Assembly (NCBI GenBank): GCA_963745965.1
Contig: CAVUZC010000006.1
Span: forward strand, 148,895-212,894
Reading direction: 5' to 3'
Length of the DNA: 64,000 bases
From: an uncultured Acidobacteriota bacterium
GTDB taxonomy: Bacteria > Acidobacteriota > Terriglobia > Terriglobales > Acidobacteriaceae
Of the stretch, positions 1,148 through 19,859 are shown piece after piece. Each line of letters begins with the position of its first letter. Position 1 is the stretch's first letter. A model generated the notes under the pieces. The model ran no database searches and was not told where the DNA came from. It worked only from the letters and a program-made list of their open reading frames with translations. The translations under genes and the position numbers were made by a program.

Positions 1148-4100
1148 AAGAGGCGGTTCTGCAGGCTCAAACACAACGCGGCGGCGATGAGAACGGCGGA
1201 GCCGGAGGCCGCGTCCGCTTCCTGGTGGGATTCGATGTAGGTTCAACGACCGTAAAAGCGGTGGCCGTCAAAAGGCCCGAGTGAGCAAGATCGTGTGGCG
1301 CGACTATCGGCGACACGAGACGCGGCAGGCGGAGACGGTGCATGAGTTTCTCGTGCGCATGGAGCGCGAAGTCGGCATAGCCGCGGGAAACAGCCGCGTC
1401 TTCATCACCGGCACGGGAGGCGGCGCGCTCGCCGCTCCCATCGGCGCGCGTTTTGTACAGGAAGTGAACGCCGTCGCATTGGCGGTAGAAAAACTGCACC
1501 CGGAAGTGCACTCGGTCATCGAACTCGGCGGACAGGACGCGAAGATCCTGCTCTTCAAGCAGGATGGCCAGGGACGGCGCAAAAAGATCGCCTCGATGAA
1601 CGACAAATGCGCAGGCGGAACCGGCGCGGTCATCGACAAAATTGCAGCGAAGCTGGGCATTTCCGCCGGTTGCCTGCAAAGCCAGCGCTACCACGGCATC
1701 CCGATCCATTCCGTGGCCGGCAAATGCGGCGTCTTTGCCGAGACTGACATCAATAGCCTGCAAAAGCTCGGCGTCCCCGCAGGCGAACTCATGGCTTCGC
1801 TCTTCGACGCGATCGTTTTGCAGAATCTGACAGTGCTCGCGCGCGGCCATACGCTGGCTCCCGAGGTTCTGCTGCTCGGCGGACCCAATGTCTTCCTTCC
1901 TGGAATGCGCGAAGCCTGGCAGCACAAGATTCCGCTGCTCTGGCAAGAGCGCGGAGTGAAACTGCCGTCCGGCGCCGCAGCCGAAGACCTGATTCGCGTG
2001 CCGGAGGATGCGTTGTATTATGGCGCGCTCGGCGCCATCGAGTTTGGCAGAACCGAGGATGAGGCAAGCGGTCTTTATGCCGGGCGCAGCGCGTTGGAGT
2101 GCCTGATGCGCGAGCGCCGCGGCGACGGATCCGAGGTTCTCGGTAGTCGCGGATTGTGCGCCTCCGACGAGGAACTGCGCGAGTTCGAGCGCAGGTATCG
2201 GCGGCCCGCGTTTCAGTCGCCCGACTTTCGCGCAGGCGAACGGGTGGATGCCTTTCTGGGAATCGACGGCGGCTCGACTTCTACCAAGGCTGTACTGCTT
2301 TCTGCGCACGGAAAGCTCCTGGCCAAGGCTTACCAGTTGTCGAAAGGCAATCCTATTCAGGACACGATCGAAGTGCTCCAGCGGCTGCGCGGCCAGGTGG
2401 AGGAAGATGGCGCGCAACTTGCCATTCTGGGCGTGGGCACGACCGGGTACGCCAAGGATCTCCTCCGCCAGGTGTTCAAGGCCGATGTGGCAATCGTGGA
2501 AACCGTGGCGCACGCGGAATCCGCAAAGCACTTCTTCGCCGATCCGCAGGTCATCGTCGACGTGGGCGGACAGGACATCAAGATCATTCTGCTGCGCGAC
2601 GGCGCAGTGAGGGATTTCAGGCTCAATACGCAGTGCTCGGCCGGGAACGGCTACTTTCTGCAATCGACGGCAGAGTGTCTGGGGATTCCACTGGAGAACT
2701 ATGCCGAAGCCGCATTCAGTGCGAGGGCGATGCCGACGTTCGGTTATGGATGCGCGGTCTTTCTGCAATCCGATATCGTGAACTTTCAGCGCCAGGGATG
2801 GCGCGCCCACGAGATCCTCGCGGGACTGGCGACGGTGCTTCCACGCAACGTCTTTCTGCACGTGGCTAAGGTGCCAAACCTGCCCGCGCTGGGCACGCGG
2901 TTCATCCTGCAGGGGGGAACGCAAAACAATCTTGCCGCAGTCAAGGCGGAGGTGGATTTTCTGCGGGCCTCCTTCCGTCATTCTGGCATAGAGCCCGAAA
3001 TCTCGATTCATCCTCACTGCGGGGAATCCGGAGCGATCGGCGCGGCCCTCGAGGCGATCCGGACCAGGCGCGCGGGAATAGCGACCAGCTTCATCGGCAT
3101 GGACGCGGTGGCAGACGATCCGCTACAAGACCGAGTGCGACGAGCAAACGCGATGCTGCTACTGCACGAATGCATGTCTGCGCACGTTTCTCAGCGTAGA
3201 AGGACGGAATGCAGCCGTCTCCAGGCGCTTCGCGGCGCATTGTGCTGGCGAATTGCGAGAAAGGGGCGGCGCAGGACGTCGATGAGTTGCGCGGACATTC
3301 GAGCAAGATTGGAAACCGTCAAGGCCGCGAACCCTAATCTGGTCGCAGTCGCGGCGCGCGAAGTGTGGCGCTCGCGGCGGCCGGAGCTTGTGGTCGATTC
3401 CGTTCCACGGCGCGCATGGAACCGCAAGGACAGTCAGAAGCTGGCGTTGCGCAGAAAACGTGGTGAGCTGCGCATTGGCATTCCACGCGTGCTCAGCATG
3501 TATGCGTACGCCCCGTTGTTCAGCGCCTATCTCGAAAGCCTGGGCGTAGCAGCGGAGAACATCGTGTATTCGAGCGTGACCTCCGGAGAGATGTACCGTT
3601 CCGGCTCCAGCCGAGGTTCGATCGATCCTTGCTACCCCTCAAAGATCGCCATCGCCCATGTGCACGATCTGCTGTTTAAGCAGCATCCGCGCGCGCCGTT
3701 GGACGTAATTCTCTTCCCGATGTTCGACGTTTTGGCTACGCGGCTCGCGCATACTCGCGCCAACAACGGCTGTCCAACGGCATCGATCACGCCGGAAACC
3801 GTCGAAGCCGCCTACACGAAAGAGACCGATCTGTTTGGCGAGCGCGGTATCCGCTACATTCACCCTCTGGTGAATCTCACGAACCGCCGGCTCTTTGCCC
3901 GCCAGCTTTATGAGGCGCTCGAACCGGTTCTGGGATTGAGCGAGGACGAAAATGCGCGGGCCGTCGAAGCCGGCTTCAGGGAATTAGAGCGATTCGAAGA
4001 GGACCTGCGCCGCCGCGGCCGCGAGGTGCTGGACCGGGTGGAGCAGGAAGGGCGGATTGCCGTTGTCATGCTGGGCAGGCCGTATCATCACGATCCCGGC

Positions 4101-4577
4101 ATTCACCAGGGCATTCCGGAAGAAATTCAGAAGCTCGGTTATCCCGTCCTTTCGCAGAGCACGCTGCCCGTGGACAGCGATCTTCTGGAGCGGCTGTTCG
4201 GCGAGGAGATTCGCGAAGGCGTCATCTCATCCGCTCTCGAAATCTCCGACGTGTGGAAGACCGCGTTTTCCGCCAACTCCAACCAGAAGTTATGGGCGGC
4301 GAAGTTCGTGGCGCGCCATCCTAATCTTGTTGCGGTGGAGTTCTCCAGCTTCAAATGCGGTCACGACGCCCCGATCTACAGCGTAGTCGAGCAGATCATG
4401 CAGTGCTCCGGCACACCGTACTTCGCTTTCAAGGATATGGATGAAAACCGCCCCGCGAACTCGATCAAACTGCGCATCGAGACCATGGATTACTTCCTCA
4501 AGCGCTACCGGAAGGAGCGATTCGGGACCGGAGCTGAGCCGCTGGAACAAGCTGAGGTCGATGCGGCCGTCTGCTAA
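1144..4577 (+). CDS. CoA-substrate-specific enzyme activase: two BadF/BadG/BcrA/BcrD ATPase domains plus a DUF2229-type reductase region (PlsA/Ger-like); frameshifts near 1280 and 3110-3290
   Basis: GFDVGSTTVKAV (frame 1, about 1225) and GIDGGSTSTKAV ASKHA motifs; ELGGQDAK...MNDKCAGGTG and DVGGQDIK...NTQCSAGNG; RCCYCTNACLRTF in a shifted frame; GIPRVLSMY, CYPSKIA, GRPYHHDPG, FKCGHD. The TTG start overlaps the upstream stop. Confidence 0.85.
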
Positions 4578-4595: not shown

Positions 4596-6380
4596 TCAGG
4601 TTAACTCTGTTGCGCGAGCGCGATTCGCCAGAACCTGCGCGATCCTCTCGCGCGCATATTGAAATCCGGTCAAGCCTGCGCAGGCTTCAGCGCGAAGGGC
4701 GGTTAATTCCCTTCGCAGGCTTGTTTCCGCCGGCGTGCCACGCGAGCCGCCGCTGATCACGCTGATACTGGTTTGCACTGCACGGGACACCGCGCGTGCC
4801 GATGCCAGATGGACGAGATCCTCGACCACGCCGGCGTTTGCATCCGGCGTGGACACTTCGAGTTCCGCGGAATCGAGCAGCAAAGAACGCGCGGCAAGCA
4901 AGCCGCAGAGCGAATCCGCCATTGCAAAGCCCGCTGCCTGACGCAAGCCGTGAAAGGCTCCTTCCGGGCCGGAACTGGTTTCGCTGCGCAAAACGCCAAG
5001 TGTGCGCGACCAGAACCTTAATCCTGTGGCGAGGATATTCGCAGCGGCCGTGTTGTGTTTGCGGTTTTCGAGATCTTCGATCCAGGCGGAAGCGTTTGCA
5101 GCAAACGTATCCGTCGTCATCGCGGCGGAGATCAGGCGCCGTTGCGAGGCGTCCGGGCCCATGTAGACGGCTTCCACCTGCGCATCGGCGATGTGCCTGT
5201 GGAGTTCGGCGGCGCTGGCGCCTGCAGCCGCGGCAACCCGAGAGAGCGCTGGAATGATGCGCGTGCTTGCGAAGAGCTTGGCGGCTGGGGAGAACAGATT
5301 GGAGTGCGCAGCAGCCGCGCGGTCGCAGGCGCCCCGGAAGTCCAGTTCGTCGCAAGAGCGCGCCGCTGAAAAACCCAGCGAGGCCGCGGCCTCTGCGGCC
5401 GCCCAAAGGTCCGCCATGTCAAGCCAGAACGCCGGGCTGTCGCATGGGGGTGCGGGGAAGAAATCGGCGGTTACTGCCAGGGCTTTGGCTGCGGTCATCA
5501 GCGCAAGGAGCGCCCGCGCCCGGCGCAACGCAGGCTCGAGCAGGTGCCGATGATCGAAGTTGGGCACGAGTACGCCATGCTCTTTCGTGTAGCCGCCCAC
5601 GATCCGCGCCGCGGGCACGCGCAAGCGAAAGCCGGGATGAGTAGCCGACGCGATGCGATGACCGATCTTTCTTGCCGGCGCTCCGCGATCGAACTCCCCT
5701 GCGTCGTGCGGCTCCAGAACGACGAGAGCGCTGCCGCTCGCTCCGTCGATTCCCTGTACGGCGGCTACCGCGAAATCCGCAAACTCCATGTGACTGGTGA
5801 ACCGCCCGCGCTTTTCGACCTCGATCCAGAGACCGTTCGCATCGCCGCTGGGACGATACGTTCCCATCAGCAGAAGCGCTTCCGCTCCGGCGCCGGGAAT
5901 CGGCTCGGTGAGACAGAGCGCGCCGTGCAGCAGGCTATTCTCCGAAGCATAGCGTTCCTTCTGTTCAACCGTGCCGAAATCTGCGATCGGCATCTGCGCC
6001 AGAAATCGCGACAGAAACAACGTCGCCAGGCCTCCATCCCGCGCGGCCAATTCGAGCAGAACCAGCCCGAGCGGTACGGCCGCCGGCTGCCGCGCGGAAG
6101 CCATCGCAGAAAGCAAGTGTGTATTGTCCAACGCTGCGAGCAGTTCCGCCTTTTCAGCGTTCCAACCGCAGGCGTTGCGAGTGCGTGCGGATTCAAGCTG
6201 CTCCTGCATTGCAGCCGCAAGTTGCCGAGCGCCGTCTTGCGCGGCGCAGAGGGCAGCTTCGTCCGCCAGCCGCCAGAGCCGCCGGTGGGTTGCCCGCAGC
6301 CAGTTGACAGACTCTGCCGGCCTAGGGCAGACGGACGGATTGCGGGCTATCTGGGACACAGTATTCCGCCATGTAGGCAC
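4596..6380 (-). CDS. Acyl-CoA dehydrogenase family protein (divergent)
   Basis: GALCLTEPIPGAG, EKRGRFTSHMEFADFAV, KIGHRIASAT, AKLFAST, DAQVEAVYMGPD resemble ACAD motifs. Start may be the GTG near 6360. Confidence 0.75.
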   Translation of the reverse strand: MPTWRNTVSQIARNPSVCPRPAESVNWLRATHRRLWRLADEAALCAAQDGARQLAAAMQEQLESARTRNACGWNAEKAELLAALDNTHLLSAMASARQPAAVPLGLVLLELAARDGGLATLFLSRFLAQMPIADFGTVEQKERYASENSLLHGALCLTEPIPGAGAEALLLMGTYRPSGDANGLWIEVEKRGRFTSHMEFADFAVAAVQGIDGASGSALVVLEPHDAGEFDRGAPARKIGHRIASATHPGFRLRVPAARIVGGYTKEHGVLVPNFDHRHLLEPALRRARALLALMTAAKALAVTADFFPAPPCDSPAFWLDMADLWAAAEAAASLGFSAARSCDELDFRGACDRAAAAHSNLFSPAAKLFASTRIIPALSRVAAAAGASAAELHRHIADAQVEAVYMGPDASQRRLISAAMTTDTFAANASAWIEDLENRKHNTAAANILATGLRFWSRTLGVLRSETSSGPEGAFHGLRQAAGFAMADSLCGLLAARSLLLDSAELEVSTPDANAGVVEDLVHLASARAVSRAVQTSISVISGGSRGTPAETSLRRELTALRAEACAGLTGFQYARERIAQVLANRARATELT

Positions 6381-7758
6381 GAGGGTTCATCAGTTGTTGC
6401 GAGCGCGCAAGGATGCGCGCAAGTTGGCCGACGTGCCGTAGATCCACCTGCGGCAGCCACTGCCACCACTTCTTGCGCCCGGCCGCATTCAGCACGGTGC
6501 GGCGCCACGTTTCGCAGTAAAGCTCGAAGAAACGTTCGACGGGAAGACGGGGCTTCCAGAGCAGATGATGCAGATCGTATTGGTTCCAGTCGAAGACTTT
6601 GATCTTTTCCCGGGTCGATGCGAAGAACTCCGTGCCAGGCAGGGGAGTCAGAATCGTGAATCCCAGCCGGAACAGCTGATGCGTCTCCACAAAATCCCAG
6701 AGAGTGTGAAAATCCTCTTCGGTAAAATCCGGATCGACGATAAAGTTGCCGGTGACGCCGAAGCCGCAGTCTCTCGCCACGCGCACGGCCTCCAGAGTCT
6801 TGGAAATATCGCTTCCTTTGTGCAGGGAATTGAGCCCTTGGCGCGTGGGCGACTCGAATCCGAAAAAGATGTCGAAGTTTTTTGCCAGCGGACGCCATAG
6901 CCGCAGCAGGTCTGCATTTCTGCTCACCAGGTCGGCGCGGGACTGCACCAGAATCCAGTTCTTGCGGGCCGGGGATGCGAGCAATTCGCGGGCGAGTTCC
7001 TCGCTGCGCGCCGAATCCGCCCAAAACAGGTCGTCGATGATAAAAAGATTGCGGCCGATGGCCGTGAAATCCTGGCGCACGTGCTGCGCCGAATGGTAGC
7101 GGCAGTTTCCCTCGTAGAACTGCCAAACGGAACAAAACTTGCAGCGGTGGCGGCAGCCGCGCGTCGTCTCCAGCGTCCACAGAGGCATGTAATTCAGACA
7201 GACATAGTGCTTGCGATAACCGCGGACGGCGGCGCGATCCGGCGGCAGGACGCGCTCCATCTCCAGCCATGGTTGCGCGCCGGCGGTGGCAACAAAACGT
7301 CCGTCGCCGGCGGGCAGAAGCAGGGATGGAATCTCGTCGAGAGGCCGGCCAGCGGCCAGAGCGCGGCACAGTGCCGGCATAATGCTCTCACCTTCACCGG
7401 CGCAGATGGCATCGATATTCTTCGCTCCCTCCAGTGCCTGCGGATAGGATGCGATGGAGTGTCCGCCGACGGCCACGAAAACCGAAGCATCGGCGGCCTT
7501 GATCTCCGCGGCCTGGGCAAGCGTTCCATGCACGTCGAGAATGTGCAGGCAGGAAATGCCCACGAGCTGCGGCCGGAAAGAGCGGATGAAATGCGCCATG
7601 GGCCGCCGCTCGAAGCCCATATCGACAATGCGCGCCTCGTGGCCTTCGGCGGCAAGCGCTGAAGCAATGTACTCAAGTCCGAGAGGCTCGGCGCGAAAGA
7701 AAGGCGCGAGACCGAAATGGGCAGTCGCGTTGCGCGGCTTGACGAGCAGAACCCTCAA
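6322..7758 (-). CDS. Cobalamin-binding radical SAM protein, HpnR-like class B C-methyltransferase family
   Basis: N-terminal B12-binding-like domain (EPLGLEYIA, VAVGGH); TTRGCRHRCKFCSVWQFY CxxxCxxC; IIDD, FFGFES, GNFIVDPDF, LTPLPGTE, YDLHH resemble hopanoid C-3 methylase HpnR-family motifs. Confidence 0.85.
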   Translation of the reverse strand: MRVLLVKPRNATAHFGLAPFFRAEPLGLEYIASALAAEGHEARIVDMGFERRPMAHFIRSFRPQLVGISCLHILDVHGTLAQAAEIKAADASVFVAVGGHSIASYPQALEGAKNIDAICAGEGESIMPALCRALAAGRPLDEIPSLLLPAGDGRFVATAGAQPWLEMERVLPPDRAAVRGYRKHYVCLNYMPLWTLETTRGCRHRCKFCSVWQFYEGNCRYHSAQHVRQDFTAIGRNLFIIDDLFWADSARSEELARELLASPARKNWILVQSRADLVSRNADLLRLWRPLAKNFDIFFGFESPTRQGLNSLHKGSDISKTLEAVRVARDCGFGVTGNFIVDPDFTEEDFHTLWDFVETHQLFRLGFTILTPLPGTEFFASTREKIKVFDWNQYDLHHLLWKPRLPVERFFELYCETWRRTVLNAAGRKKWWQWLPQVDLRHVGQLARILARSQQLMNPRAYMAEYCVPDSPQSVRLP

Positions 7759-8033: not shown

Positions 8034-8815
8034 ATGCTGCGGCCGTATCTCTTTATCGGTCTGTTTGTAGCGACCAACTGCACCCTTGCGTTGCTCTATC
8101 CGTTCTCTTTGGCCCGATTTCTTGCCTTCGCGGCCCTCTACGGTCTGGGAACGGGAGTCATGCTCTTCCTGCTCTTTTATCCCACCAACGATTGGCTGGT
8201 GACGAACCGCTCGCATGTCGAAGGCGACAAAGAGATGGCGCTGACCTTCGACGATGGGCCCGACCCGGTGGACACGCCGCGGCTGCTGGATTTACTGCGA
8301 GCAAAAGGGCATCAAGGCGACATTTTTCGTCGTTGGCCGCCGCGCCGACGCAGCATCCCGAGATCGTGCGCCGCACCTGGGAAGAAGGGCATCTGATCGG
8401 CAATCACACGTGGTCGCATCAACCGCTTTTTTGTTTTTTGCCGCCATGGCGGCTGCGTCTGCGAGATCGAGCGCGGCACGGAGAGCATCCGGCGCGCTCT
8501 GTGGCATTAAACCACGCTACTTCCGTTCCCCGGTCGGATTGCGCCATCCCTTTCTCCGCCCCTATCTGGCCAGGCCGGGCTGACGTTTGTCTCCTGGCGA
8601 TTGCGCAGCCGCGATACCAGCATCCGCAATGCGGAGAAGACTGGCAGCATCGCATCGTGGAGAATGCGGAAGGCGGCGATATTATCCTTCTGCACGACCA
8701 CCGGCCCTGCGGAGCGAAGCCGATGCTGGAGGCGCTGCCCGGCGTGATCGACAATTGCGGGCGCGCGGATTTCGAATTCGTTCTTGCCGGCTCACGCGAA
8801 GAAGCGGAATACTGA
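8034..8815 (+). CDS. Membrane-anchored polysaccharide deacetylase (NodB/CE4), several frameshifts
   Basis: Two N-terminal hydrophobic segments, then LTFDDGP, ATFFVVG, GNHTWSH, RYFRSPVG and IILLHD spread over three frames. Confidence 0.85.
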
Positions 8816-8825
8816 AAAGGACTGC

Positions 8826-9502
8826 ATGAAAACCTGCGCATTGATTCCGGCATACAACGAGGCCAGCCACATCGGCCAGGTCGTGAGCGGCGCAAGAGCG
8901 CACGTGGATTCCGTGGTGGTCATCGACGATGGTTCCACGGACGAAACGGCCGAACTGGCCAGAAGGGCCGGCGCGGTTTGCTTGCGCAACGCTGCAAACC
9001 GCGGCAAGGGTTCAGTGCTGCGCACGGGCATGAAACATGCTATCTCCGAAGGATTTACCCACGCCGTGACTCTGGATGGCGACGGCCAGCATCTTCCCGG
9101 CAGATATTTCCGCGCTGCTGCGCGTCGCCCGGGAAACAGAAGCCGACCTGGTGATTGGCGCGCGCAACTTCGAACGTTCGCGATGCCAAGCGGCGCGCTA
9201 TTACTCGAACACGGTGGGCAGCCGCTGGGCGTCGGCGCATGGTGGGCAGGAAAATCGCCGACAGCCAAAGCGGATTCCGAGTGTACAAACTGGAGAGAGT
9301 TTCGCCAGATCGTTTTGCGCAGCACGCGTTATGAATTCGAAATGGAAGCGCTGATCAAGATGGCGCGAGCGGGGCGGTCATTGTCCATGCCCCCATCCAA
9401 ATGATTTACCAGGGCAATCAGCCGCGATCGAAGATGAAGCCGATACGCGATACCGTGCGCATCTGCTTCTGTTCCCTGGCATTTCGGTTTTTGGGAGCTT
9501 GA
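8826..9502 (+). CDS. Glycosyltransferase family 2 (DPM-synthase-like), frameshifted
   Basis: IPAYNEA, VVVIDDGSTD, NRGKG, TLDGDGQH (DxD), RYEFEMEAL. Stop at 9502 is followed by the next ATG at 9504. Confidence 0.85.
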
Positions 9503-9503
9503 G

Positions 9504-10136
9504 ATGAAGCCTCATCTCAAATGGTTCGCTCGCGCTGCATGGCTTCTGCTGTCACCGGCGCTTTGCGCCCAGCAGAACGATCTTCTGGCGCGCATCTGGG
9601 ATGGTGTACAGCAGGCCCAAGCGCATACAACTACGGCCTGCGGAACCGTGGTGGAGACGCGCACGTCGCCGCTGATGGTAAAGCCTATCGTGCTGCACGG
9701 CAAGTTCTGCGCCGAAGGCGCTGTGCGTTTCTGGCTCGAGTATCTTCCGCCGCATGCAATGACAGTGCGCTTCAACACGGATGATCTGAATGCGACTGGA
9801 AGCGACGGAGAAACTGAGATCGTCGACATAGGCAGCGGCGTGCGCCGCGCCCAGGCTGCGTTTAGCCGCGAAGGATCGCTGGCGGGCCTCGAGAAGGACT
9901 TCACCATCGCAGTTCACGAAGACGATCGCGAGTACGAGTTGAAGTTCCTTCCCCGTGCCGATGTTTTCCGGAGGCGGCTGAATCTTCTCGTCATCAAGCT
10001 GAGCAAGCGCACGTTTCTCCCCCGGTCCATAGAAGTCGATGGAAAGAGCGGGGTCAGCAGCGTCTTTGCCATCGACATTACGGCGACCAACGAGAAGCTG
10101 CCCGCGGGAATCTTCGAGGTGAAAAAGCCCAAATGA
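9504..10136 (+). CDS. LolA-like periplasmic lipid/lipoprotein carrier
   Basis: Signal peptide, about 210 aa beta-rich pattern (G.F.....VRFWLEY..P; LKFLP; IEVDGKSGVSSVF), and location next to FabZ and MMPL genes. Confidence 0.65.
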   Translation: MKPHLKWFARAAWLLLSPALCAQQNDLLARIWDGVQQAQAHTTTACGTVVETRTSPLMVKPIVLHGKFCAEGAVRFWLEYLPPHAMTVRFNTDDLNATGSDGETEIVDIGSGVRRAQAAFSREGSLAGLEKDFTIAVHEDDREYELKFLPRADVFRRRLNLLVIKLSKRTFLPRSIEVDGKSGVSSVFAIDITATNEKLPAGIFEVKKPK

Positions 10137-10549
10137 TGGAACAAGCAGAGATCGAAAAGCTGATTCCGCACCGGCCGCCGTTTCTGTGGATCGATCGCGT
10201 GGTGGAACTGGAACCGGGCAGCCGTTGCGTAGCGATTCTCAACGTCAGCGCGGAGAACCCGGTCTTCGGCGGGCATTTCCCCGGCAGGCCGATCTTCCCC
10301 GGCGTTCTGATGATCGAGGCCGTGGCGCAGACCGCGGCCGTGATGCTGGGCGCGGAAGGCCCGGCGGCGAGCGCGTTGCTCGCGTCCGTCAACCGCTTCA
10401 AGTTTTTGCGGCCGGTCATTCCCGGTGAATGCCTGCGTATCGAGACAAAAAAGCTAACGCAGATGGCGGCGATGGCTTACATTGAGGGCACCATCGCAGT
10501 AAGCGGGGAAAGAGTGGCAAGCGGCGAACTATCGGTCGCCTGGGGCTGA
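10133..10549 (+). CDS. fabZ: 3-hydroxyacyl-ACP dehydratase (FabZ family)
   Basis: IPHRPPFLWIDRV and FGGHFPGRPIFPGVLMIEAVAQ hotdog-fold motifs; ATGA overlap with the upstream gene. Confidence 0.9.
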   Translation: MMEQAEIEKLIPHRPPFLWIDRVVELEPGSRCVAILNVSAENPVFGGHFPGRPIFPGVLMIEAVAQTAAVMLGAEGPAASALLASVNRFKFLRPVIPGECLRIETKKLTQMAAMAYIEGTIAVSGERVASGELSVAWG

Positions 10550-10605
10550 ACTGCGTCGATCTCCCTGGAAGCAGGAATCGTTATCGGATAGGAACGAGTC
10601 GGACA

Positions 10606-11721
10606 ATGATGAAATCCGGCAGGGCATACATCAAGAAACTGGGAGCGACCCTGTTGACGGAGGGCCTGGACCCGGGTCAGGCCGGCATGGCGGTCGGCTT
10701 GGGTATCTTCATCGGCATCGTACCCATCTACGGTTTGCAGTCTCTGGCTGCTATCGGCCTGGCGATCGTCTTTCGCCTCAACAAACCTTTGACGTTGGCC
10801 GCAACCTTCATCAACAATCCCATCCTTCAACCTTTTCTCGTCATCGCATCGGTCGAGTGCGGCAGCTTGCTGCGCACCGGCTCTCTCCACCCATGGCATC
10901 TGGCGGGCTTCACCACCGCTGCCTTGCGCAACGATCTGGTTTCGTGGGCGCTGGGCAGCGTGGTTCTGGGAGTGGTTGCGGGCGCTGCCGGGACCGTGAC
11001 CACGATGGTTACCGTCGCATGGCTGCGGCCATCGAACTCCGGGCTGCGACGGGGTCCCGGTTTGCGCGCGCGGGTCCGCTTTGTGAATGGCATTTACGCC
11101 GCCGCGCCGCGGTTCGATCGCGGATTCGTGCGCTGGAAGATGCGGCTGGACAAGATATTCTCCCTCCTTGCTGCGGAAGGAATGGGATCGGGTACTGCCG
11201 TGGACCTTGGCTGTGGCTATGGGATGGCCTTGTGCTTTGCCGCTTACGGCCAGGAGGGGCGGCAGCTTGCAGGCTGCGACCTCGACCGGCGGCGCATCGG
11301 CGTGGCGCAAAAGGCGCTGGCCGGCGTTCGACGCCAAGGTTGAGGTGTGCGATGTGCGGCAATACCCATTGCCTGGTGCCGGCTTGATTCTGATTCTCGA
11401 CGTACTGCAGTACCTGACCGCCGAGGAGCAGTTGGCCCTGTTGGCCCGCTGTTGCGTGGCTTTGGAACCGGGAGGAAAGTTCGTCTTTCGCGTGCATGAC
11501 CGGGAGCACGGCGTGCGTTCGGCCATCACCATCGCTTTCGACAAGCTGATCTTCAAGATCGGCAGCGCGTCCACTCGGCCTTTGGTGCTTTCGCCGGAGC
11601 ATACCGTGCGGCGCTCGAAGCGGCAGGGATGCAGGTGCGCATGAAGCGCTTCTGCAATCTTCTGCCTCTGGCGCACATTCTTTTTGTTGCCGAGAAGCCC
11701 CGGCCGGAGAGCGCCTTATGA
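10606..11721 (+). CDS. DUF2062 membrane domain fused to a class I SAM-dependent methyltransferase; frameshifted
   Basis: AVGLGIFIGIVPIYGLQ...FINNPI (DUF2062-like), then AVDLGCGYG, GCDLD, ILILDVLQYL and LEPGGKFV across frames; ends at the TGA overlapping the MMPL ATG. Confidence 0.75.
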
Positions 11722-14259
11722 TCGCCCGGCTCACGCGTCCCCTGGCGCAGCTAGTCATCCGTTGGCCCGGATGGATAGCGGCTGCGGCGCTTGTCCTGAC
11801 CGATCGTTCTTTACTCGCATATTCATGCTCTGCGCACCGGAACCGACCTGACCGGCATGTTCGGAAACAAGGATCCGCAATGGCAGGCGGTGAGCAAAAT
11901 CGGCAATGAGCTCGGCTACGGAAATCAGCTCTACGTGCTGGTGCTGGCGCCCGCCGGCGATGAAGATCGCAGCGACCAGATGGAGCAGGTTGCGGACCAG
12001 CTGACACAGGAGATGTCCGCAAGCGGACTCTTCAGGTCGGCGCGTTCGGGACTGTCGGAAGAGGAATTGCTCGGCATCGTCCGGCTGTTTTCCTGGAACT
12101 TTCCCGGCCTATGCGGACGCCGAAAACAGCCAGGCCATTCGCGACCGGCTCGATCCCAGGCAGATCCATGCCAACGTGCGCGCCGCTGCCACCGAATTAG
12201 TGACGCCTTTCTCGACTCTGGGCACAAACTACTTTGTTGCCGATCCTCTGGGGCTCACGGCGGCGGCGGCGCGAAACAAGCAAGGCTTGAGTGAGTTTGG
12301 CAACTTCGATTTCAACTGGGGCTCGGGAAACCGCTTCTTCAGCAAGGATCACAAGGCGTTGCTGATTATCGCCCAGCCGCGCCAACCTGCCGTCGATTAC
12401 CAGTTTGCTCACCAGGTGATGGACTGGACACGGCAGCACATCGCGTACGCCACATCCGGCTCGGTCGTCAGGGATTCAGGCGTGCATGCCGTCCCAGCCG
12501 GGGCCTATGTCTATTCCGAGGAAGACCATCTGTTCATCGAGAAGAACATCCGCCGCGTCTCGCTGGTAGCGATCGTCGGCAGCCTGCTGCTTTGCCTGGC
12601 GGTCTATCCCAATGTCCAGATCGTTGTTCTTGTCGCTTCTGCCCACGGGCCTGGGAATCCTTTGGACGACAGGAATTGCCAGCTACTATCCCGGCGAAGT
12701 GAATCTGATCAGCCTGTCGTTCATCGCCATTCTCGCCGGGCTTGGTGACGACCAGGTAGTGCATTTCTTCAACCGCTCGCCGCAGGAATGGGAGAAGGGC
12801 GGCAGCTTCAACGACGCCATGCTGCGCACCTTTGAAACCACGGGGACCAGCATCGTGCTCTGCATTCTGACTGCGGCTACTTCGACGGCCGCGCTGGCCT
12901 GTTCCGGTTTCAAGGCGCTGTCGGAGTTTGGCTTCATTCTCACGGTGGGCATGTTCATGACGGGATTGCACACCCTGCTGACGGTGCCCGCCCTGATGCA
13001 GTTGTGGGGACGATACATCAAGCCGCTCGCTCCCAAGGCCATCACCTTCCGTTTTCTGCCTTCCCTGGCGCGGGTCTCGGTGGATTTTGTCGGCCGCCAC
13101 GCCGCGCATGGTCGCCATCGCTGCCGGGGGCCTGTTTCTCGCGTCGTTGTGTCTGCTGCCTTCCATACGCTGGGGAGGTCATTTCGCCGTGACGAGCGGC
13201 ACGGACTCGCCCGGGTTGGCGGCGCAGAATCTGCTTTCGTCAAAGTACGGCATCGAAGGCAGCCCGGATGTGCTGCTGATGGCGGGCACCGAGGAGGAGG
13301 TTCTGCGCCGCGCCGAGAATCTGACCGCCGCACTAGGGGAATACCAGAGAAACGGCGTGATCAAATCGGTGTTTTCGCCATCGCAACTTTTTCCTTCGGT
13401 GGAGATGCAAGCGCAGCGCGCCGACTCCCTTAAGGGAGTCGATCTGGGCGCCACGGCGCGCGCACTCAAAGAGTCTTTAGACGAGAACGGCTTCCGTCCC
13501 GGCCCGTATGCATCCTACTTCGCGCGCCTTCGGGAGTTGAGCCAGAACGCGCAGCCGCTCACGCTCGAGAGCGCGAAGTCCTATCTGCCTGCCGACCTGA
13601 TGGAAAACAGCATCCGCCGGACGCAGGACGGCAATTACGTCGCCGCCATCGCCTTCTATGCCTCCGATCCCAACACTCCGCAGGTTATTCCCGATTCCGT
13701 GCTGAAGCAGTGGCGCATGCGATACGGTTCATTTGTCGATTTCTCGTTCAACAAAATCGACAGGGACCTCCAGAGCCGCGTCTCTCATGACAGCCGCCGC
13801 GCTCTCCTGTGGACGGCAGCGGCGATCTTCCTGATCGTGTACTTCACCTTTCGGCGTATGTCCACGGCTTTGCTGGTCCTCATGCCAATCGGCTTCGCCA
13901 TCGTGGTCACCTTTGGCATTTTGCAAATTGCCGGGCATCGTTTCAGCATGATGGCAATCACCGCGCTCCCGCTGATCGTGGGCATCGGCATCGACAATGG
14001 CATTCACCTGGTGCGCCGTTATCTTGAAAGCGATCGCGATCGCAACCGCATTCTCACGGTCGCCAAGGCTTCCGGCGCCGCGCTGATTCAGTCCAATTTG
14101 ACCACCATCGTGGGTTTTGGCGCTTTGATGACTGCCACCTTCAAGCCCCTGGCCGAGATGGGGTTGGTGACTTCGCTGGGCGTAGCTCTGACCCTGGCGG
14201 GAGGGTTCTGGTTGATTCCTGCCCTGCTGTACCTGAGGGAAACGCGCAGAGAATCTTAA
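11718..14259 (+). CDS. MMPL/RND family lipid exporter; several frameshifts
   Basis: Two repeated TM bundles with AGLGDDQVVHF and IVGIGIDNGIHLV, TGTSIVLCILT and SGAALIQSNLTTIVGFGAL, and F..L.EMG motifs, spread over ORFs 11857, 12176, 12612 and 13087. Confidence 0.85.
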
Positions 14260-14394: not shown

Positions 14395-15966
14395 ATGTCC
14401 AGATCTGCTACGGGGGATTTGAACATCGATTTGGTAGCTTCTCTGTGCCCTGAGTGCGGGGCGCCGAGTACCGCGACCATCTTCGATCGTGCAGGAAAGG
14501 TCTACCAAAGGTCTCAGTGCGCTTGCCACGAGCCAGTTGAAGACCTGATTTTTTCCGACACAGCCCTCTACCGCAAACTCGACGAGTGGAACCGGCTGAT
14601 CTTTCCCTCTTCGCAGGTTGCCGGCAACCCTCCAGGAAATACGTATTGCCCGCAGGACATGAAAAGCGGGAACGAGCCTTGCCTGGCGGTGATCGATATC
14701 ACAAATCGCTGCAACTTTCGCTGTCCTGTCTGCTTTGCCGAAGCCAAGGGAGAAGGCAGCCATTACGCGCTTGATCCTGAGACCGTAAGAAAGATGCTGC
14801 AGGCCCTGCTGGACCGCCCCGTACCCTGCCGCAGCGTGCAGTTTTCAGGCGGCGAGCCTACCGTGCATCCGGAGTTTCCCAGCATTCTGCGCATGGCGCG
14901 GGAGATGGGCTTCACGCACATCCAGGTGGCCACCAACGGAAGCAAGTTTGCCGATCCCGATTACGCAAAACTCTGCGAGGATGCGGGACTCCACACGCTC
15001 TATCTGCAGTTCGACGGAATGAGCGACGAAGTCTACGTGAAGATGCGCGGCCAGCGCCTGCTCGACAAGAAGATCGCCGCGGTGCGCAGCATCGAGCAGA
15101 CCAACATGCGGCTGGTATTAGTGCCCACCATTATCGGCGGCATCAATGTCGATCAACTTGGGCCCATCTTCCGCTTTGCCCTCGAGCACAGCCGCTTTGT
15201 CACCGGCATCAGCGTGCAACCGGCGGCGCATGTAGGCCGCGTCGGTGTCGACGAAAATGGGGCCGAGCCCTTCAATCTTGCCGCCATGGCGAGGGAGTTC
15301 GGCGAGCAGACCGGGCTGACGCGCTTTCCCGACGACTGGTTTCCGCTTAATTCAATTGCTTTGCTGAGCCGGGCCATCGAACGCGTGCGCAACGAGCGCG
15401 TTCACCCCCCGCTCAGCGATGCGCATTGCTCCATTGGAACCTTCTTTTACATCGACGACAACAACCGGCCCTTCTGCCTGAGTAGCTTCTTCGATCTGGG
15501 CCGCTTCCTGCGCGGCATGGCGCAGGTGCAGTCCATGGCCACGCAGGGTTTGATCGGAAGGCAAATATCCAGGATCAGGCAGTTCGGCAGGTTTGCCACT
15601 TGTCTCAATCAGCGCAAGGCTCCTCCCGGGCTCACCTTCCAGCGCCTGATACGCAGTCTCGATGCCTGGGAGGACAAGGCGGACGGTCGTTCCGAAGGCT
15701 GGGATCGGCGCGGATTCAACGGCATCTTCGTGGCCGGTATGCACTTCATGGACGCGCACAGCTATAACCTGCGCCGGCTGCACCGCTGCATCATCCAGTA
15801 TGTCTCCACGGATGGAGAACTGATCCCGTTCTGTAGTTATAACGCAGGCGCACGGCTACGCGAGCAGGAAGAGTTGATTCGCATCAAGAACCGTCAGGCT
15901 GCAGCCCCGGCGCACCTGCCCGCCGCTGCCATGCCCGCCGGGAGCGGCGCGGCGCTCGACGATTAA
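14395..15966 (+). CDS. Radical SAM protein of the tetraether lipid synthase (Tes/GDGT-MAS, MJ0619) family
   Basis: N-terminal SLCPEC...QCACH metal site; DITNRCNFRCPVCFA; VQFSGGEPTVHP; IQVATNG; LYLQFDG; C-terminal HCSIG...GMHFMD...RCIIQY...LIPFCSYN matches the family as I recall it. ORF intact. Confidence 0.8.
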   Translation: MSRSATGDLNIDLVASLCPECGAPSTATIFDRAGKVYQRSQCACHEPVEDLIFSDTALYRKLDEWNRLIFPSSQVAGNPPGNTYCPQDMKSGNEPCLAVIDITNRCNFRCPVCFAEAKGEGSHYALDPETVRKMLQALLDRPVPCRSVQFSGGEPTVHPEFPSILRMAREMGFTHIQVATNGSKFADPDYAKLCEDAGLHTLYLQFDGMSDEVYVKMRGQRLLDKKIAAVRSIEQTNMRLVLVPTIIGGINVDQLGPIFRFALEHSRFVTGISVQPAAHVGRVGVDENGAEPFNLAAMAREFGEQTGLTRFPDDWFPLNSIALLSRAIERVRNERVHPPLSDAHCSIGTFFYIDDNNRPFCLSSFFDLGRFLRGMAQVQSMATQGLIGRQISRIRQFGRFATCLNQRKAPPGLTFQRLIRSLDAWEDKADGRSEGWDRRGFNGIFVAGMHFMDAHSYNLRRLHRCIIQYVSTDGELIPFCSYNAGARLREQEELIRIKNRQAAAPAHLPAAAMPAGSGAALDD

Positions 15967-16130: not shown

Positions 16131-19103
16131 ATGAGACCGTACGTCGTTCAAGGAAGCGGATCGCTCGCAACCAAGCGATACACTTTGTTGCTGGCTTGTT
16201 CAGCTCTTCTGATTTTGCCGGCGTTTGGGCAGGCCGGTCTGCCGCATCTTGCGGTCCCTATCTCCTCTTCCAACACCTCCGGTGAGTTAGCCGCCAACGT
16301 GGCGGCAGGCGTTGCCTGCGCGGCCCCTGGCTCTCCGGTAATCATGCCGGGCGCGGATTTCAACCTCGGCGCAAAAGCAGTTTCCGTCTCGCCGCTCGCC
16401 GGCCAGGCCGCAACTCTCGGCAATCTCCCATCGACCGCGGCGGTATGGCTGCATCTCCGCGTCGACTTCGCAGGACTGACCGGAAACGAATCGGAGCAGG
16501 AGCTCGCCGCGCGGGTCGACGCAGCCCTGAATCAGGCTCCGCTGGCAGCGCAGGGCGTTCGCGGACTGATTGTAGAAGTGAACGGCCCCGGCAAAGCTGG
16601 GGATCCGGTTGCCTATGCGCTCTTGCGCCTCGCCATCGGTGCGCGCTCGCTCAATCCAGGCCTGCGGATCGCATTCGCTTTTCCCGCCGGATTCGTCGCC
16701 GACCATGAATCTCTGGTCAAGCGCCTGGCCCCCTACTCCGATCTGCTGGGCATCGCTTTTTCGTCGCAATGGCGCGCCGAGGCCACATGGATTTCCGAAC
16801 AAGCCCTCAACAAGCCGCTGTTGCTCAAGCTGGACGCATCGGCCGATCCGGAAAAGGCATTTCTTGACGCCGCGATGGATTCCTCGGGCACCCAGGTGGA
16901 GATGCTGTGGACGGAGGCGGACCAAGCCTCTCTAACCGGCCGAATCTGCCGCCTCAGTAGCTTTCTTGTCCAGAACGTTCCCGCCGGCATGTTGCAGCTC
17001 GAAGGCTCAGCCGCGCCTTTGTCGCTCACGGTCGATGGCTCGCCTTCCGCCGGCGCGTTGTGGCTCACGAGTGGTCAATCGGCGGACTTCGTCGTACTGG
17101 CTCGTATCGGCGGCAGCCCGGATCATCCTCGCACCGCGCAGCTCCAATGGAAAAGCAACGCGCAGTACGATGCGGAGTGGTTCGATGCGGCTGCCGGCGC
17201 CTCTCTTGCTCCCGGCAAGCCCGTCGAATCCGCCGGCGAAACCACGCAAACAGCCTCTTCGATTACGGGCGCTTACGTTCTGATCGCTCTCCATCGCAAG
17301 AACCCTAATGAGACCGCGGTCTATAACCAGGTGGAAGTCAAAAGCGGTATCGAGCTCAACGTCCAGGAGATTATTGCTCGCTGGCAGCAATATCGAGACG
17401 CCCAGGATAGAAGACTCGAAAACTACCAGGCCTCCGTCTTCGTGAGCCTCCATTTTGAAACCGTCTCCATGGGCACGGGATTCGACGTCTCCATGAATAT
17501 GCGGCAGTTTTACCGCCGCGGCAAGCCGATGGAGCAGGCGCAGACAGGGTTCTATGTGAACGGCGTGCGGTTCGGCAACAACCACGCGTTTCCGCTGCCG
17601 CAGTTGGAGCCGGAAAAGGTGCTCACCCAGCCTCTGGTGCTCACGCTCAATGAGAGCTACAGTTACAAACTGCTCGGCACCGAGAAGATCGCCGGATCGC
17701 TCTGCTATGTCGTTGGCCTGGAGCCGAAGGTCGCCAGCGAGAACCTCTACAGCGGCAAGGTGTGGATCGACGGCGTCTCTTTCCGCGAGGTTCGCCAATC
17801 GCTCAGCGAGATGAGCAGTAAGAGCAACCTGGTTGTGAACGTGGAGACCGAAAACTTCGCCCTCGTCGACGACGGCAAGGGAGGCACGTTCAACCTGCCT
17901 CAGTCCTCCGCCGCGCAGCAGACGCTCAACGTCGCAAGCCGCGACTTTCACTTGCAGCGCACCGCCGTGTTTTCGGGCTATTCCATCAATGGCTCCAGCT
18001 TCGACCCCGATCTCGCGGCAGAACGCGCCTCGAACGATCCGATGTTCCAGGATACTGACCAGGGCCTGCGCTCGCTCAAGAAGGTCAGCGGCCAGCGGGT
18101 TCTCGAAACCGGCAGCGAGAAGAAGATTCGCTCTCTGGTCGGCGGCGCCATGTACTCGGGAACCTTCGATTTCCCGATTCCCTTCGCAGGCATCAGCATT
18201 GCCGACTTCGATTGGCGCCACACCGGCGCGCAACTCTCCATCTTCTTCGCGGGGCCTATCGCGGCCGTCAACTATTCCCGGCAACAGGGAACCAGATTCC
18301 GCTACGGAACAGACCTCGCGGTGTCGGCTCTTCCGGGCGAGAATCGCATCTACGTGGGCAACGTTGAGCAAACCGGTGAAGAGGTTTGGAGCTGGTCTGA
18401 GACCGTAGGCCAGCGCGCAACCTGGCTGGCTTCGGATCATCTCAGCCTCACCGCATACGCCTATCTCGAGGGCGACATCTACGCGGGAACCAGCGACACC
18501 TCCAGCCTGTACGTCTTGCCGCGCAACGGCGTCGCCCTGCTGCCCGGAACGCAAGTCCGCTTCACCGCAAAAGGCTACATTTTCACCGCCGACGGCACCC
18601 GCGGCCAGCGCATCGCGTGGAAGTCCTTCGGGTACCCCAACGCTCCGGAGCGCGCTGAGAGCGGATACACCCTCTACGATGGCGACCTCAACAAGGATTA
18701 CTATATCGGCAAATTCACCAAGGGCGGATGGGACATGGGCTACTACGGCGGCGACCAGCTCGACCGCTTCTCGCGCTACTTTCCGTGGCTCTTCTCCGAG
18801 CCGCACCTGCACGGCATCCCCGGCGGGACAGATTCCTTCGATGCCATCGCCATGAGCAGCGCGCATTATGGCTTCAACATCATGGATCTGTTCAAAATCG
18901 AAGGCCTCTACAGCTATGCCCGCGCGCGCAACCTGAGCGAGTCAAGCCACTTCAAGAAATTCGATGGCGCCGAGACCAACTTCAATATCGGTGGTCCCAA
19001 AGGCACGTTGATTCAAGGCACCGTCGGCTATGCCATCGACGGCAACATCGCCCGCTACAACTCCCGTTGGAGCTTTGACATGTTGATCTACAAGCCATTC
19101 TGA
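16131..19103 (+). CDS. Large secreted protein: N-terminal periplasmic domain, RseB/LolA-like middle domain and probable C-terminal outer-membrane beta-barrel
   Basis: Signal peptide; Y.Y.LLG.EKIAG..CYVVGLEP...YSGKVWID pattern of the LolA/RseB fold; aromatic and Gly-rich alternating strands; terminal Phe (LIYKPF). Confidence 0.55.
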   Translation: MRPYVVQGSGSLATKRYTLLLACSALLILPAFGQAGLPHLAVPISSSNTSGELAANVAAGVACAAPGSPVIMPGADFNLGAKAVSVSPLAGQAATLGNLPSTAAVWLHLRVDFAGLTGNESEQELAARVDAALNQAPLAAQGVRGLIVEVNGPGKAGDPVAYALLRLAIGARSLNPGLRIAFAFPAGFVADHESLVKRLAPYSDLLGIAFSSQWRAEATWISEQALNKPLLLKLDASADPEKAFLDAAMDSSGTQVEMLWTEADQASLTGRICRLSSFLVQNVPAGMLQLEGSAAPLSLTVDGSPSAGALWLTSGQSADFVVLARIGGSPDHPRTAQLQWKSNAQYDAEWFDAAAGASLAPGKPVESAGETTQTASSITGAYVLIALHRKNPNETAVYNQVEVKSGIELNVQEIIARWQQYRDAQDRRLENYQASVFVSLHFETVSMGTGFDVSMNMRQFYRRGKPMEQAQTGFYVNGVRFGNNHAFPLPQLEPEKVLTQPLVLTLNESYSYKLLGTEKIAGSLCYVVGLEPKVASENLYSGKVWIDGVSFREVRQSLSEMSSKSNLVVNVETENFALVDDGKGGTFNLPQSSAAQQTLNVASRDFHLQRTAVFSGYSINGSSFDPDLAAERASNDPMFQDTDQGLRSLKKVSGQRVLETGSEKKIRSLVGGAMYSGTFDFPIPFAGISIADFDWRHTGAQLSIFFAGPIAAVNYSRQQGTRFRYGTDLAVSALPGENRIYVGNVEQTGEEVWSWSETVGQRATWLASDHLSLTAYAYLEGDIYAGTSDTSSLYVLPRNGVALLPGTQVRFTAKGYIFTADGTRGQRIAWKSFGYPNAPERAESGYTLYDGDLNKDYYIGKFTKGGWDMGYYGGDQLDRFSRYFPWLFSEPHLHGIPGGTDSFDAIAMSSAHYGFNIMDLFKIEGLYSYARARNLSESSHFKKFDGAETNFNIGGPKGTLIQGTVGYAIDGNIARYNSRWSFDMLIYKPF

Positions 19104-19118
19104 TCGAGGACCGAGCCG

Positions 19119-19859
19119 ATGACGGCTAAGGACAAGACCGCGCTTGTAACCGGGGCATCGGGCACGCTGGGGGCAGAAATTGCCCTGGCTCTGGCGCGGA
19201 GCGGCTTTCGCGTGGCCGTGCATTACCACAGCAACCAAGCGGCCGCTGCGCGGGTGGTTCAGAGCATTCAGGCGGCGGATGGAGAAGCCGTCGCCGTGGC
19301 TGCCGACCTCTCGGAGCGCAACAGCGTGGCCCCGCTGTTTGCCGAAGTCGAAGCCCGTCTCGGTCCGGTCGATTGCCTGGTCAACAACGCGGGAATCAAT
19401 CGCGACGCCGTGCTGGCCCTTATGAGCGACGCGCAGTGGGACGAGGTGATCGACACCAACCTTCGCGCTGCGTACTTGTGTTCCAAATTGGCCGTCGTCG
19501 GCATGATGCGCGCCGGCGGCGGCAGCATCTGCAATATCGTTTCTCCCAGCGGAGTGCGCGGCCAGGCCGGCCAATGCAATTACTCCGCCGCCAAGGGAGG
19601 CGTGATTGCTCTGACTAAAGCTCTGGCCCGCGAGGCAGGCCGCTTCAATATCCGCGTCAACGCCGTTTGTCCCGGCGTGGTGCCCAGCCCCATGTCGGCC
19701 AGATACATCGAAAAGGAGGAACAGCGCCTGCTCGCCGAGATACCTCTGGGCCGCTTCGGTAAACCCGAAGAAATTGCGCCATTGATTGCGTTTCTCGCGT
19801 CGCCTCAGGCGAGTTACATCACTGGGCAGGTGATCGCCGTGGATGGCGGCTTGCTTTAG
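19119..19859 (+). CDS. fabG: 3-oxoacyl-ACP reductase (SDR)
   Basis: [45 protein letters not shown]. Confidence 0.9.

Follow-up and report, generated by a model that had tools for sequence, protein, structure and literature searches.

A bacterial Tes-like radical SAM protein without ligands for the N-terminal auxiliary cluster, encoded in a conserved lipid gene cluster of Acidobacteriaceae

Introduction

Does an enzyme of the Tes/GDGT-MAS family need its N-terminal auxiliary iron-sulfur cluster in order to join lipid tails? The question is raised by a radical S-adenosylmethionine (SAM) gene located at 14395..15966 (+ strand) in a 64,000-nucleotide stretch of contig CAVUZC010000006.1 (assembly GCA_963745965.1; hereafter, the window) from an uncultured member of the Acidobacteriaceae. 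A preliminary description, based on the nucleotide sequence alone, presented the product of this gene (hereafter, the Tes-like protein) as a bacterial Tes/GDGT-MAS-family radical SAM protein in which the coupling site is retained and the N-terminal cluster motif is apparently eroded, and suggested that a different redox route or product (macrocycle or intramolecular ring) could result.

The best characterized member of the family, MJ0619 of Methanocaldococcus jannaschii, is a GDGT-MAS with four metal sites (Lloyd et al., 2022, PMC9433317). Its N-terminal cluster, [Fe4S4]N, is bound by C73, C77 and C80 together with a conserved histidine, and its C-terminal cluster, [Fe4S4]C, which lies beside the strictly conserved Tyr459, by three cysteines and the labile Met439 (PMC9433317). 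In archaeal Tes, the first of the lipid radicals is kept on the C-terminal cluster in the form of a C-S adduct; for the N-terminal cluster of GDGT-MAS, which is exposed at the surface, a role in electron transfer or redox tuning has been suggested (Lloyd et al., 2022, PMC9433317). In bacteria, Tes homologues have been discussed in connection with brGDGTs (branched glycerol dialkyl glycerol tetraethers), which were first found in peat and belong to the terrestrial proxies most widely used for past temperature and pH, but the producers of which, as well as the enzymes involved, are not established (PMC8941075, PMC10087280). That bacterial Tes homologues act as brGDGT synthases has been a hypothesis since 2022 (PMC8941075), and the proposed candidates for the synthesis of these lipids now comprise Tes homologues, PlsAR and Grs-like B12 radical SAM proteins (PMC8941075, PMC10087280).

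A distinct bacterial subfamily of the Tes kind

The gene is an open, intact reading frame of 523 codons, and we are highly confident that it represents a selected member of a distinct bacterial Tes/GDGT-MAS subfamily. Comparison of the single sequence with the PDB using phmmer retrieved 7tol_A, the GDGT-MAS MJ0619 (E=4e-83, residues 15-493), and a profile built from the clade of close homologues matched the same structure with E=1.6e-107, despite an identity between the two proteins of only ~30%. The AF2 model of the Tes-like protein (pLDDT 75, pTM 0.79) was matched by Foldseek to 7TOM and 7TOL with TM scores of 0.74/0.78 (E ~1e-35, ~511 columns), whereas the next folds scored ~0.3, indicating that the model has the four-domain GDGT-MAS fold. 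The initial family assignment is thus upheld by both sequence and structure comparisons, both of which had been proposed as checks. The sequence of the gene itself is not an assembly artefact because it is spanned by contigs of four independent public soil-metagenome runs with few substitutions and no listed indels, which rules out an assembly error.

Among the Pfam domains, Radical_SAM (PF04055) was matched at 3e-23, along with an N-terminal Zn_ribbon_HMPTM domain. The top NCBIfam model is the Tes equivalog NF045702, with 349.7 bits, which is below the cut-off of 450 bits for membership. The second best model, TrsS (NF045646), reaches 275.7 bits versus a cut-off of 490 and covers only positions 4-296 of 441, so that the protein does not belong to TrsS either. 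The MoaA models score ~67-72 bits against cut-offs of 231-325 and are confined to the radical SAM core (residues 100-277), leaving out the C-terminal GTP-binding cluster domain of MoaA, which argues against placement in the MoaA/pterin group, an outcome that had been named as fatal to the Tes assignment. Although the conserved catalytic features are all Tes-like, as detailed below, the ligands of the N-terminal cluster are missing and the curated score is not reached; the protein is therefore classified as a distinct subfamily of the Tes kind and not as a Tes equivalog.

Conservation of the reaction centre

Our homologue search yielded more than 4,850 relatives, of which the best 120 share 53-100% identity with the Tes-like protein; the conservation of metal ligands was assessed in 115 full-length homologues. 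Three of the four metal sites of MJ0619 are retained. The rubredoxin-like mononuclear iron site (14446..14529, +), which lies in the Zn_ribbon_HMPTM domain, consists of CPEC (C18, C21) and CACH (C42, H45), and its CX2CX20CX2H spacing is identical to that of C9X2C12X20C33X2H36 in MJ0619. The four residues are present in every homologue aligned in this region (104-111 of the 115, the others having gaps, with the exception of one arginine in place of H45). The radical SAM motif CNFRCPVC (C106-X3-C110-X2-C113; 14710..14733, +), located within the Radical_SAM domain, is invariant in all 115 homologues.

The C-terminal auxiliary, or coupling, cluster site (15427..15834, +) was recognized by alignment with MJ0619 and comprises C345 in an HC motif, M449 in GMHFMD, C465 in RC, Y469 and C480 in PFC. 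M449 and Y469 align with Met439 and Tyr459 of MJ0619, respectively. The three cysteines of MJ0619 that bind the C-terminal cluster are not listed in the original paper, and the assignment of C345, C465 and C480 accordingly follows from conservation: these residues and M449 occur in every close homologue aligned at the respective columns, the remainder of the 115 rows being gaps, and are near-invariant across an alignment of 134 superfamily sequences. Y469 is invariant in the clade alignments of 28 and 13 sequences. Thus, the C-terminal ligands align with residues of MJ0619, and the rubredoxin-like, radical SAM and C-terminal motifs quoted in the preliminary description are all found in the 523-aa protein. 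Furthermore, F114, R218, Q275 and R282, all invariant in the clade, align with the residues of MJ0619 that contact 5'-deoxyadenosine (5'-dAH), namely, Phe106, Arg210, Gln268 and Arg275. The one substitution among these contacts is Ala278 (15226-15228), which is invariant in the clade and replaces Ser271, a residue that forms a hydrogen bond to the ribose of 5'-dAH in MJ0619 (Lloyd et al., 2022, PMC9433317). Judging from the alignments, then, the Tes reaction centre is conserved, including the SAM cluster, the 5'-dAH contacts apart from the Ser271 to Ala278 exchange, the C-terminal ligands and the adjacent tyrosine.

Loss of the N-terminal cluster ligands

The coupling site is kept while the N-terminal auxiliary cluster's ligands are lacking, and the alignments bear out both halves of this early observation. 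The segment preceding the radical SAM motif reads NTYCPQDMKSGNEPC, with NTYCPQDMKSG at the place of CPYDCGLCPNH in MJ0619. In the 134-sequence superfamily alignment, the three cysteine columns of the N-terminal cluster are occupied by G81, C85 and D88, and no histidine follows, confirming that this segment is altered. The entire former [4Fe-4S]N segment (residues 68-97; 14596..14685, +) is a hypervariable linker with C85 and C96 as its only cysteines; it falls on unconserved, largely acidic columns when the clade profile is compared with 7tol_A, and residues 75-87 have pLDDT <50 in the AF2 model. A frameshift that would hide the motif is ruled out, given that none of the three forward frames of 14545-14740 contains CPxxCGxC.

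The linker was compared in 111 homologues, none of which carries CX3CX2C in the stretch that begins at His45 and ends at the radical SAM motif. The number of cysteines in this region varies, with 0 in 29 homologues, 1 in 9, 2 in 38, 3 in 32 and 4 in 3, and neither of the two cysteines of the Tes-like protein is consistently present (of 115 homologues, 61 have C85 and 51 have C96). In the Tes-like protein, as in the four or five sequences most closely related to it, only two linker cysteines are left, and more distant members have none. Measured between His45 and the first cysteine of the radical SAM motif, the linker has a median length of 60 residues, about that of MJ0619.

The ratio of nonsynonymous to synonymous substitution rates (dN/dS) of the whole gene against orthologues is 0.08-0.18. 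In comparisons with seven orthologues, dN/dS is 0.06-0.16 outside residues 68-97, but 0.2-1.0 inside, showing that the gene is maintained and that relaxation is confined to the former cluster segment; a dN/dS of ~0.1 also rules out a pseudogene. The loss of the N-terminal cluster is hence fixed throughout a large clade that evolves under purifying selection and is not specific to a single gene. Accordingly, the word 'eroded' is appropriate insofar as the ligands are gone but not in the sense of a private decay.

Two further observations concern cysteines within the clade. In the subclade nearest to the Tes-like protein (homologues P0007-P0054), the place of the ancestral CX3CX2CX2H is mostly taken by CC-X9-C or CXC-X8-C, in some cases with a histidine; these patterns may represent a residual or altered metal site that has been further lost in the Tes-like protein. 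Besides, C145, C194, C361 and C403 (14827-14829, 14974-14976, 15475-15477 and 15601-15603, respectively) show little or no variation in the clade. These four residues might form a compensating cluster, but C145 and C194 are also present in relatives carrying the N-terminal motif (for instance, P0122 and P0126) and so are not linked to its loss. Only C361 and C403 are clade-specific: elsewhere in the superfamily, cysteine is found in three rows at column 361 and in one row at column 403, the usual residues being Pro and Tyr/Arg/Phe.

Position in the family and origin of the loss

To place the clade within the family, we used a library of representatives at 50% identity, in which 365 proteins are matched at E<=1e-30 and a single full-length representative, P0025, stands for the entire clade. 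The CPxxCGxCxxH motif precedes the radical SAM motif in about four fifths of the representatives with a readable pre-motif segment, and all three N-cluster cysteines are present in 108 of the 134 aligned superfamily sequences. In a FastTree phylogeny, constructed after removal of the linker columns, rooted at the midpoint and free of named archaeal Tes sequences, the clade (13 rows) has 100% local support and a long stem of 1.05 changes per site. The group in which it is nested, also with 100% support, includes bacterial homologues from the same phylum that bear the motif (L015-L024, P0122, P0123) and share 38-42% identity with it. Given that the motif is found in 108/134 sequences and in all the nearest neighbours, the apparent loss of the N-terminal cluster is, on this tree, a derived trait.

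These motif-bearing homologues, from Acidobacteriota and other bacteria (P0122, P0123, P0126 and L015-L024), are of the kind proposed to be brGDGT synthases (Zeng et al., 2022) and have the same domain order as the Tes-like protein. However, they carry CPxxCGxCxxH and score 545-593 bits with NF045702, passing the cut-off, whereas the N-cluster-less clade lacks the motif, remains below the cut-off with 314-356 bits and is separated from them by the long stem. Likewise, compared to MJ0619, the closest known protein, which shares full-length homology and fold with the Tes-like protein, as well as the sites described above, the latter lacks the [Fe4S4]N ligands and is encoded in a bacterium within a gene cluster of the fatty-acid/polyketide type rather than near isoprenoid ether-lipid genes.

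The same 100%-supported group includes a separate motif-less clade, which contains a second Tes-like gene from the source genome (contig C11:303389-304954; L002:1321-3441). Its product of 706 aa is extended at both the N and the C terminus, carries GMWFQD in place of GMHFMD and scores 322 bits with NF045702 (299-322 bits across this paralogue clade). Similar to the Tes-like protein, the paralogue has no N-cluster ligands, retains the C-terminal site and stays under the Tes cut-off; unlike it, the ~700-aa type forms its own 100%-supported clade, lies outside the lipid cluster and is present in all 15 genomes of the same family that were searched. The N-terminal cluster was therefore probably lost at least twice, independently, in the two clades.

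The lipid gene cluster

The Tes-like gene is part of a conserved lipid gene cluster of ~31 kb and ~24 genes, which occupies C6:137.6-168.7 kb in the source genome; L026, L027 and L057 are examples of intact orthologous loci. The order Tes-like gene, ~990-aa protein, short-chain dehydrogenase/reductase (SDR) recurs in ~30 loci from metagenome-assembled genomes (MAGs) of peat and soil Acidobacteriaceae, and wherever a locus reaches beyond the Tes-like gene, the 990-aa gene lies directly 3' of it, with the single exception of L025, in which no match to the 990-aa protein was found between the Tes-like and SDR genes. In the window, the 990-aa protein (16131..19103, +) shows weak LolA_like, DUF5686 and TP_0789-like matches, and the positionally conserved third member of the triad (19119..19859, +) is a FabG-like ketoreductase (Pfam adh_short_C2 at 2e-60). 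Most loci that reach upstream share the order acyl-CoA dehydrogenase-like protein, B12 radical SAM protein, deacetylase, family 2 glycosyltransferase (GT2), 209-aa protein, FabA/ApeI-like dehydratase, DUF2062-methyltransferase and MMPL exporter; some loci are limited to the cluster's downstream half. The MMPL gene (11718..14259, +; Pfam MMPL) is directly upstream of the Tes-like gene and is split into five frame pieces in the assembly. The B12-binding radical SAM gene (6322..7758, -; Pfam B12-binding and Radical_SAM), the position of which is conserved, encodes a protein 72% identical to the orthologue in L007.

The flanks of the cluster carry genes for acyl carrier proteins (ACPs), additional B12 radical SAM proteins, an LpxL-like acyltransferase, a ketosynthase (KS), a chain-length factor (CLF), a ketoacyl-ACP synthase III (KASIII) and an AMP-ligase. 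At the upstream edge of the window is a PlsR/PlsA-like pair (36-4577), including a PlsA/Ger-like activase-type protein (1281..4577, +) with two BcrAD_BadFG domains and a DUF2229 domain in Pfam, which adjoins the cluster in locus L046 as well. The half of the cluster resembling a fatty-acid synthase/polyketide synthase (FAS/PKS) is adjacent to this pair, just upstream of the window on the minus strand (contig C6:137593-147973), and encodes a B12 radical SAM protein, an ACP, an AMP-ligase, KASIII, CLF, KS, the LpxL-like acyltransferase, a second B12 radical SAM protein, a second ACP and a 360-aa protein. In this region outside the window, KASIII was matched in three pieces and the KS without its N-terminal part. 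Lipid genes neighbour the Tes-like gene in every locus.

Distribution

A scan of species-representative genomes identified the Tes-like gene, at 62-87% identity, in ~30 MAGs, none of them from a cultured organism. The carriers are Terracidiphilus sp. from the SPRUCE peat experiment, Acidobacteriaceae MAGs labelled 'bog_' or 'fen_', Ca. Sulfotelmatobacter, Granulicella and Danish soil MAGs. Among 201 sampled genomes of the phylum, only the source genome and G045 have the N-cluster-less type; this tally includes one unpublished genome (G024), on which no claim rests. Two MAGs contain two copies each of the gene and its cluster on different contigs, namely, bog_373 (L029, L048) and SPRUCE 16 (L039, L040), which could reflect either real duplication or a mixture of strains in the bin.

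Proposed function and alternative explanations

The explanation that we favour, with a probability somewhat better than even, is that the Tes-like protein is an intact member of the Tes family that lost the N-terminal cluster as a derived trait and performs a Tes-like coupling on a lipid made by its own gene cluster. For the reaction alone, tail-to-tail coupling is about an even bet. As in Tes, unactivated alkyl carbons would lose hydrogen to two 5'-deoxyadenosyl radicals in succession, and unactivated alkyl termini would be linked by a C(sp3)-C(sp3) bond via a C-S intermediate on the C-terminal cluster. The substrate would be an acyl or alkyl lipid produced by the ~31-kb cluster, with putative contributions from KS/CLF/KASIII, the ACPs, AMP-ligase, dehydratase, ketoreductase, LpxL-like acyltransferase, B12 radical SAM proteins, PlsA/R-like proteins, GT2, MMPL and the 990-aa envelope protein, and the product would be a tail-to-tail joined lipid, either membrane-spanning or macrocyclic, of a brGDGT-like kind. 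Lacking the N-terminal relay, the radical SAM cluster might receive electrons from the rubredoxin-like site or directly from an external reductant or reductase. A functional analogue, although by description from a separate radical SAM lineage, is Mss of Thermotoga and Thermoanaerobacter, a bacterial radical SAM protein whose ability to join two fatty-acyl tails has been demonstrated (Sahonero-Canavesi et al., 2022). In that study, a Tes homologue was not detected in the Mss-bearing strains, nor was mss in Acidobacteria (Sahonero-Canavesi et al., 2022).

Several points weigh against this explanation. We found no report in the literature of a demonstrated activity for any member of the clade or for any bacterial Tes homologue. 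The long stem, the sub-threshold score and the clade-invariant C361, C403 and Ala278 are all compatible with a changed reaction or substrate. By our reading of the Pfam content, the core of the cluster resembles aryl-polyene-type clusters to which radical SAM and ether-lipid genes have been added, a likeness that would point to outer-membrane lipids rather than bulk membrane lipids. In addition, the type of the N-cluster-less clade is absent from the three genomes of the same genus and the 15 of the same family that were searched, where, apart from one motif-bearing copy, all that is found is the ~700-aa paralogue type, which makes the paralogue the better candidate for a general iso-diabolic-acid synthase of the family. 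For comparison, E. aggregans has one Tes homologue, which is 32% identical to MA_1486 (E=4e-61; Zeng et al., 2022, PMC8941075). Finally, four genes next to the Tes-like gene are disrupted in the assembly, as described in the last section.

The same fold could support other chemistry, that is, a different radical step on the cluster lipid, such as intramolecular ring closure or a sulfur insertion that halts at the C-S adduct. The stem of 1.05 changes per site, the NF045702 score of 349.7 versus 450 bits, the presence of C361 and C403 at positions that are nearly never cysteine elsewhere and the exchange of Ser271 for an invariant alanine are in line with this possibility, and general coupling could be left to the second Tes-like paralogue in the genome; moreover, the archaeal homologue MA_1114 gave only traces of macrocyclic archaeol (PMC8941075). 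We nevertheless regard it as unlikely, because the three C-terminal cysteines and the methionine, the Tyr459 equivalent and the 5'-dAH contacts are all kept, and the sequence contains no positive sign of another reaction. A lower probability still is given to re-ligation of the N-terminal site, with C85 and C96, together with Asp88 or other residues, binding an iron-sulfur cluster or metal, and with CC-X9-C or CXC-X8-C serving the same purpose in the sister proteins. Three or four linker cysteines in 35/111 homologues, the recurrence of these two patterns in the nearest subclade and the preserved linker length would fit such a site, but the Tes-like protein has two linker cysteines only, neither in a conserved column, 29 homologues have none at all, and the linker combines a dN/dS of 0.2-1.0 with pLDDT <50. 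Besides, adjacent cysteines seldom act as ligands of one cluster.

Two other scenarios are very improbable. Under the first, the Tes-like gene is decaying as the relic of a dying cluster, to which the ~19 one-base indels in the deacetylase, GT2, DUF2062-methyltransferase and MMPL genes could testify; yet the gene itself is open, has a dN/dS of ~0.1 and retains all its catalytic ligands, and metagenomic contigs are free of the extra bases, X1 at all the listed sites and X2 and X8 at 9102. Even less credible is a pterin- or molybdopterin-type radical SAM protein, either HMPTM, as MJ0619 was first annotated, or a MoaA-like one, in place of a lipid enzyme. The name of the N-terminal Pfam domain, Zn_ribbon_HMPTM, and the label '7,8-dihydro-6-hydroxymethylpterin dimethyltransferase' in some homologue records of the Joint Genome Institute (JGI) are suggestive of this assignment; however, MJ0619 itself has been demonstrated to be a GDGT-MAS (PMC9433317), the MoaA models span residues 100-277 only, far below their cut-offs, and lipid genes lie next to the gene in every locus.

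Starting from the favoured Tes-like coupling, a bolder proposition can be formulated, namely, that the clade and the ~31-kb cluster constitute a dedicated brGDGT pathway of uncultured peat Acidobacteriaceae (Terracidiphilus and relatives). Such a pathway might combine chain synthesis of the FAS/PKS type, an ester-to-ether step by the PlsA/R-like proteins, B12 radical SAM proteins acting as methylases or cyclases, a step for the glycosyl head group, an export line (MMPL, LolA-like, 990-aa protein) and Tes-like tail joining. The linkage of Tes-like, PlsA/R-like and B12 radical SAM genes in peat Acidobacteria, as seen in the gene order, fits the published brGDGT proposal, but we consider the pathway as a whole doubtful. 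If it were real, the N-terminal cluster of Tes would be dispensable for C-C coupling. Our literature search found no description of the N-cluster-less clade, of N-cluster loss in bacterial homologues or of the gene cluster. In any case, a naturally occurring relative of Tes that lacks [Fe4S4]N yet keeps the coupling cluster offers a ready test of the purpose of the N-terminal cluster, and the occurrence of the clade in bog, fen and peat MAGs, linked to genes for ether formation, B12 radical SAM proteins, head groups and export, provides a defined and testable gene set.

Disrupted neighbouring genes

The deacetylase, GT2, DUF2062-methyltransferase and MMPL genes (8034-14253) carry ~19 one-base indels between 8300 and 13104 relative to intact orthologues, and the remaining cluster genes within the window are intact. 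In a tblastn comparison with the intact 848-aa orthologue from L007, the MMPL gene runs through frames 3, 1, 2, 3 and 1, and one-base indels in the MMPL region are also evident relative to L048. The extra bases at 8307, 8349, 8460, 8499, 8640, 8646, 8773 and 9102, among others, are missing from a full-length contig of the public run X1, and the one at 9102 is likewise missing from contigs of two more runs (X2 and X8). Given that these contigs are free of the extra bases and match the window almost perfectly over 14.4-20 kb, an intact version of the cluster exists in nature, and the breaks in the four neighbours are probably an artefact of assembly or strain mixture.

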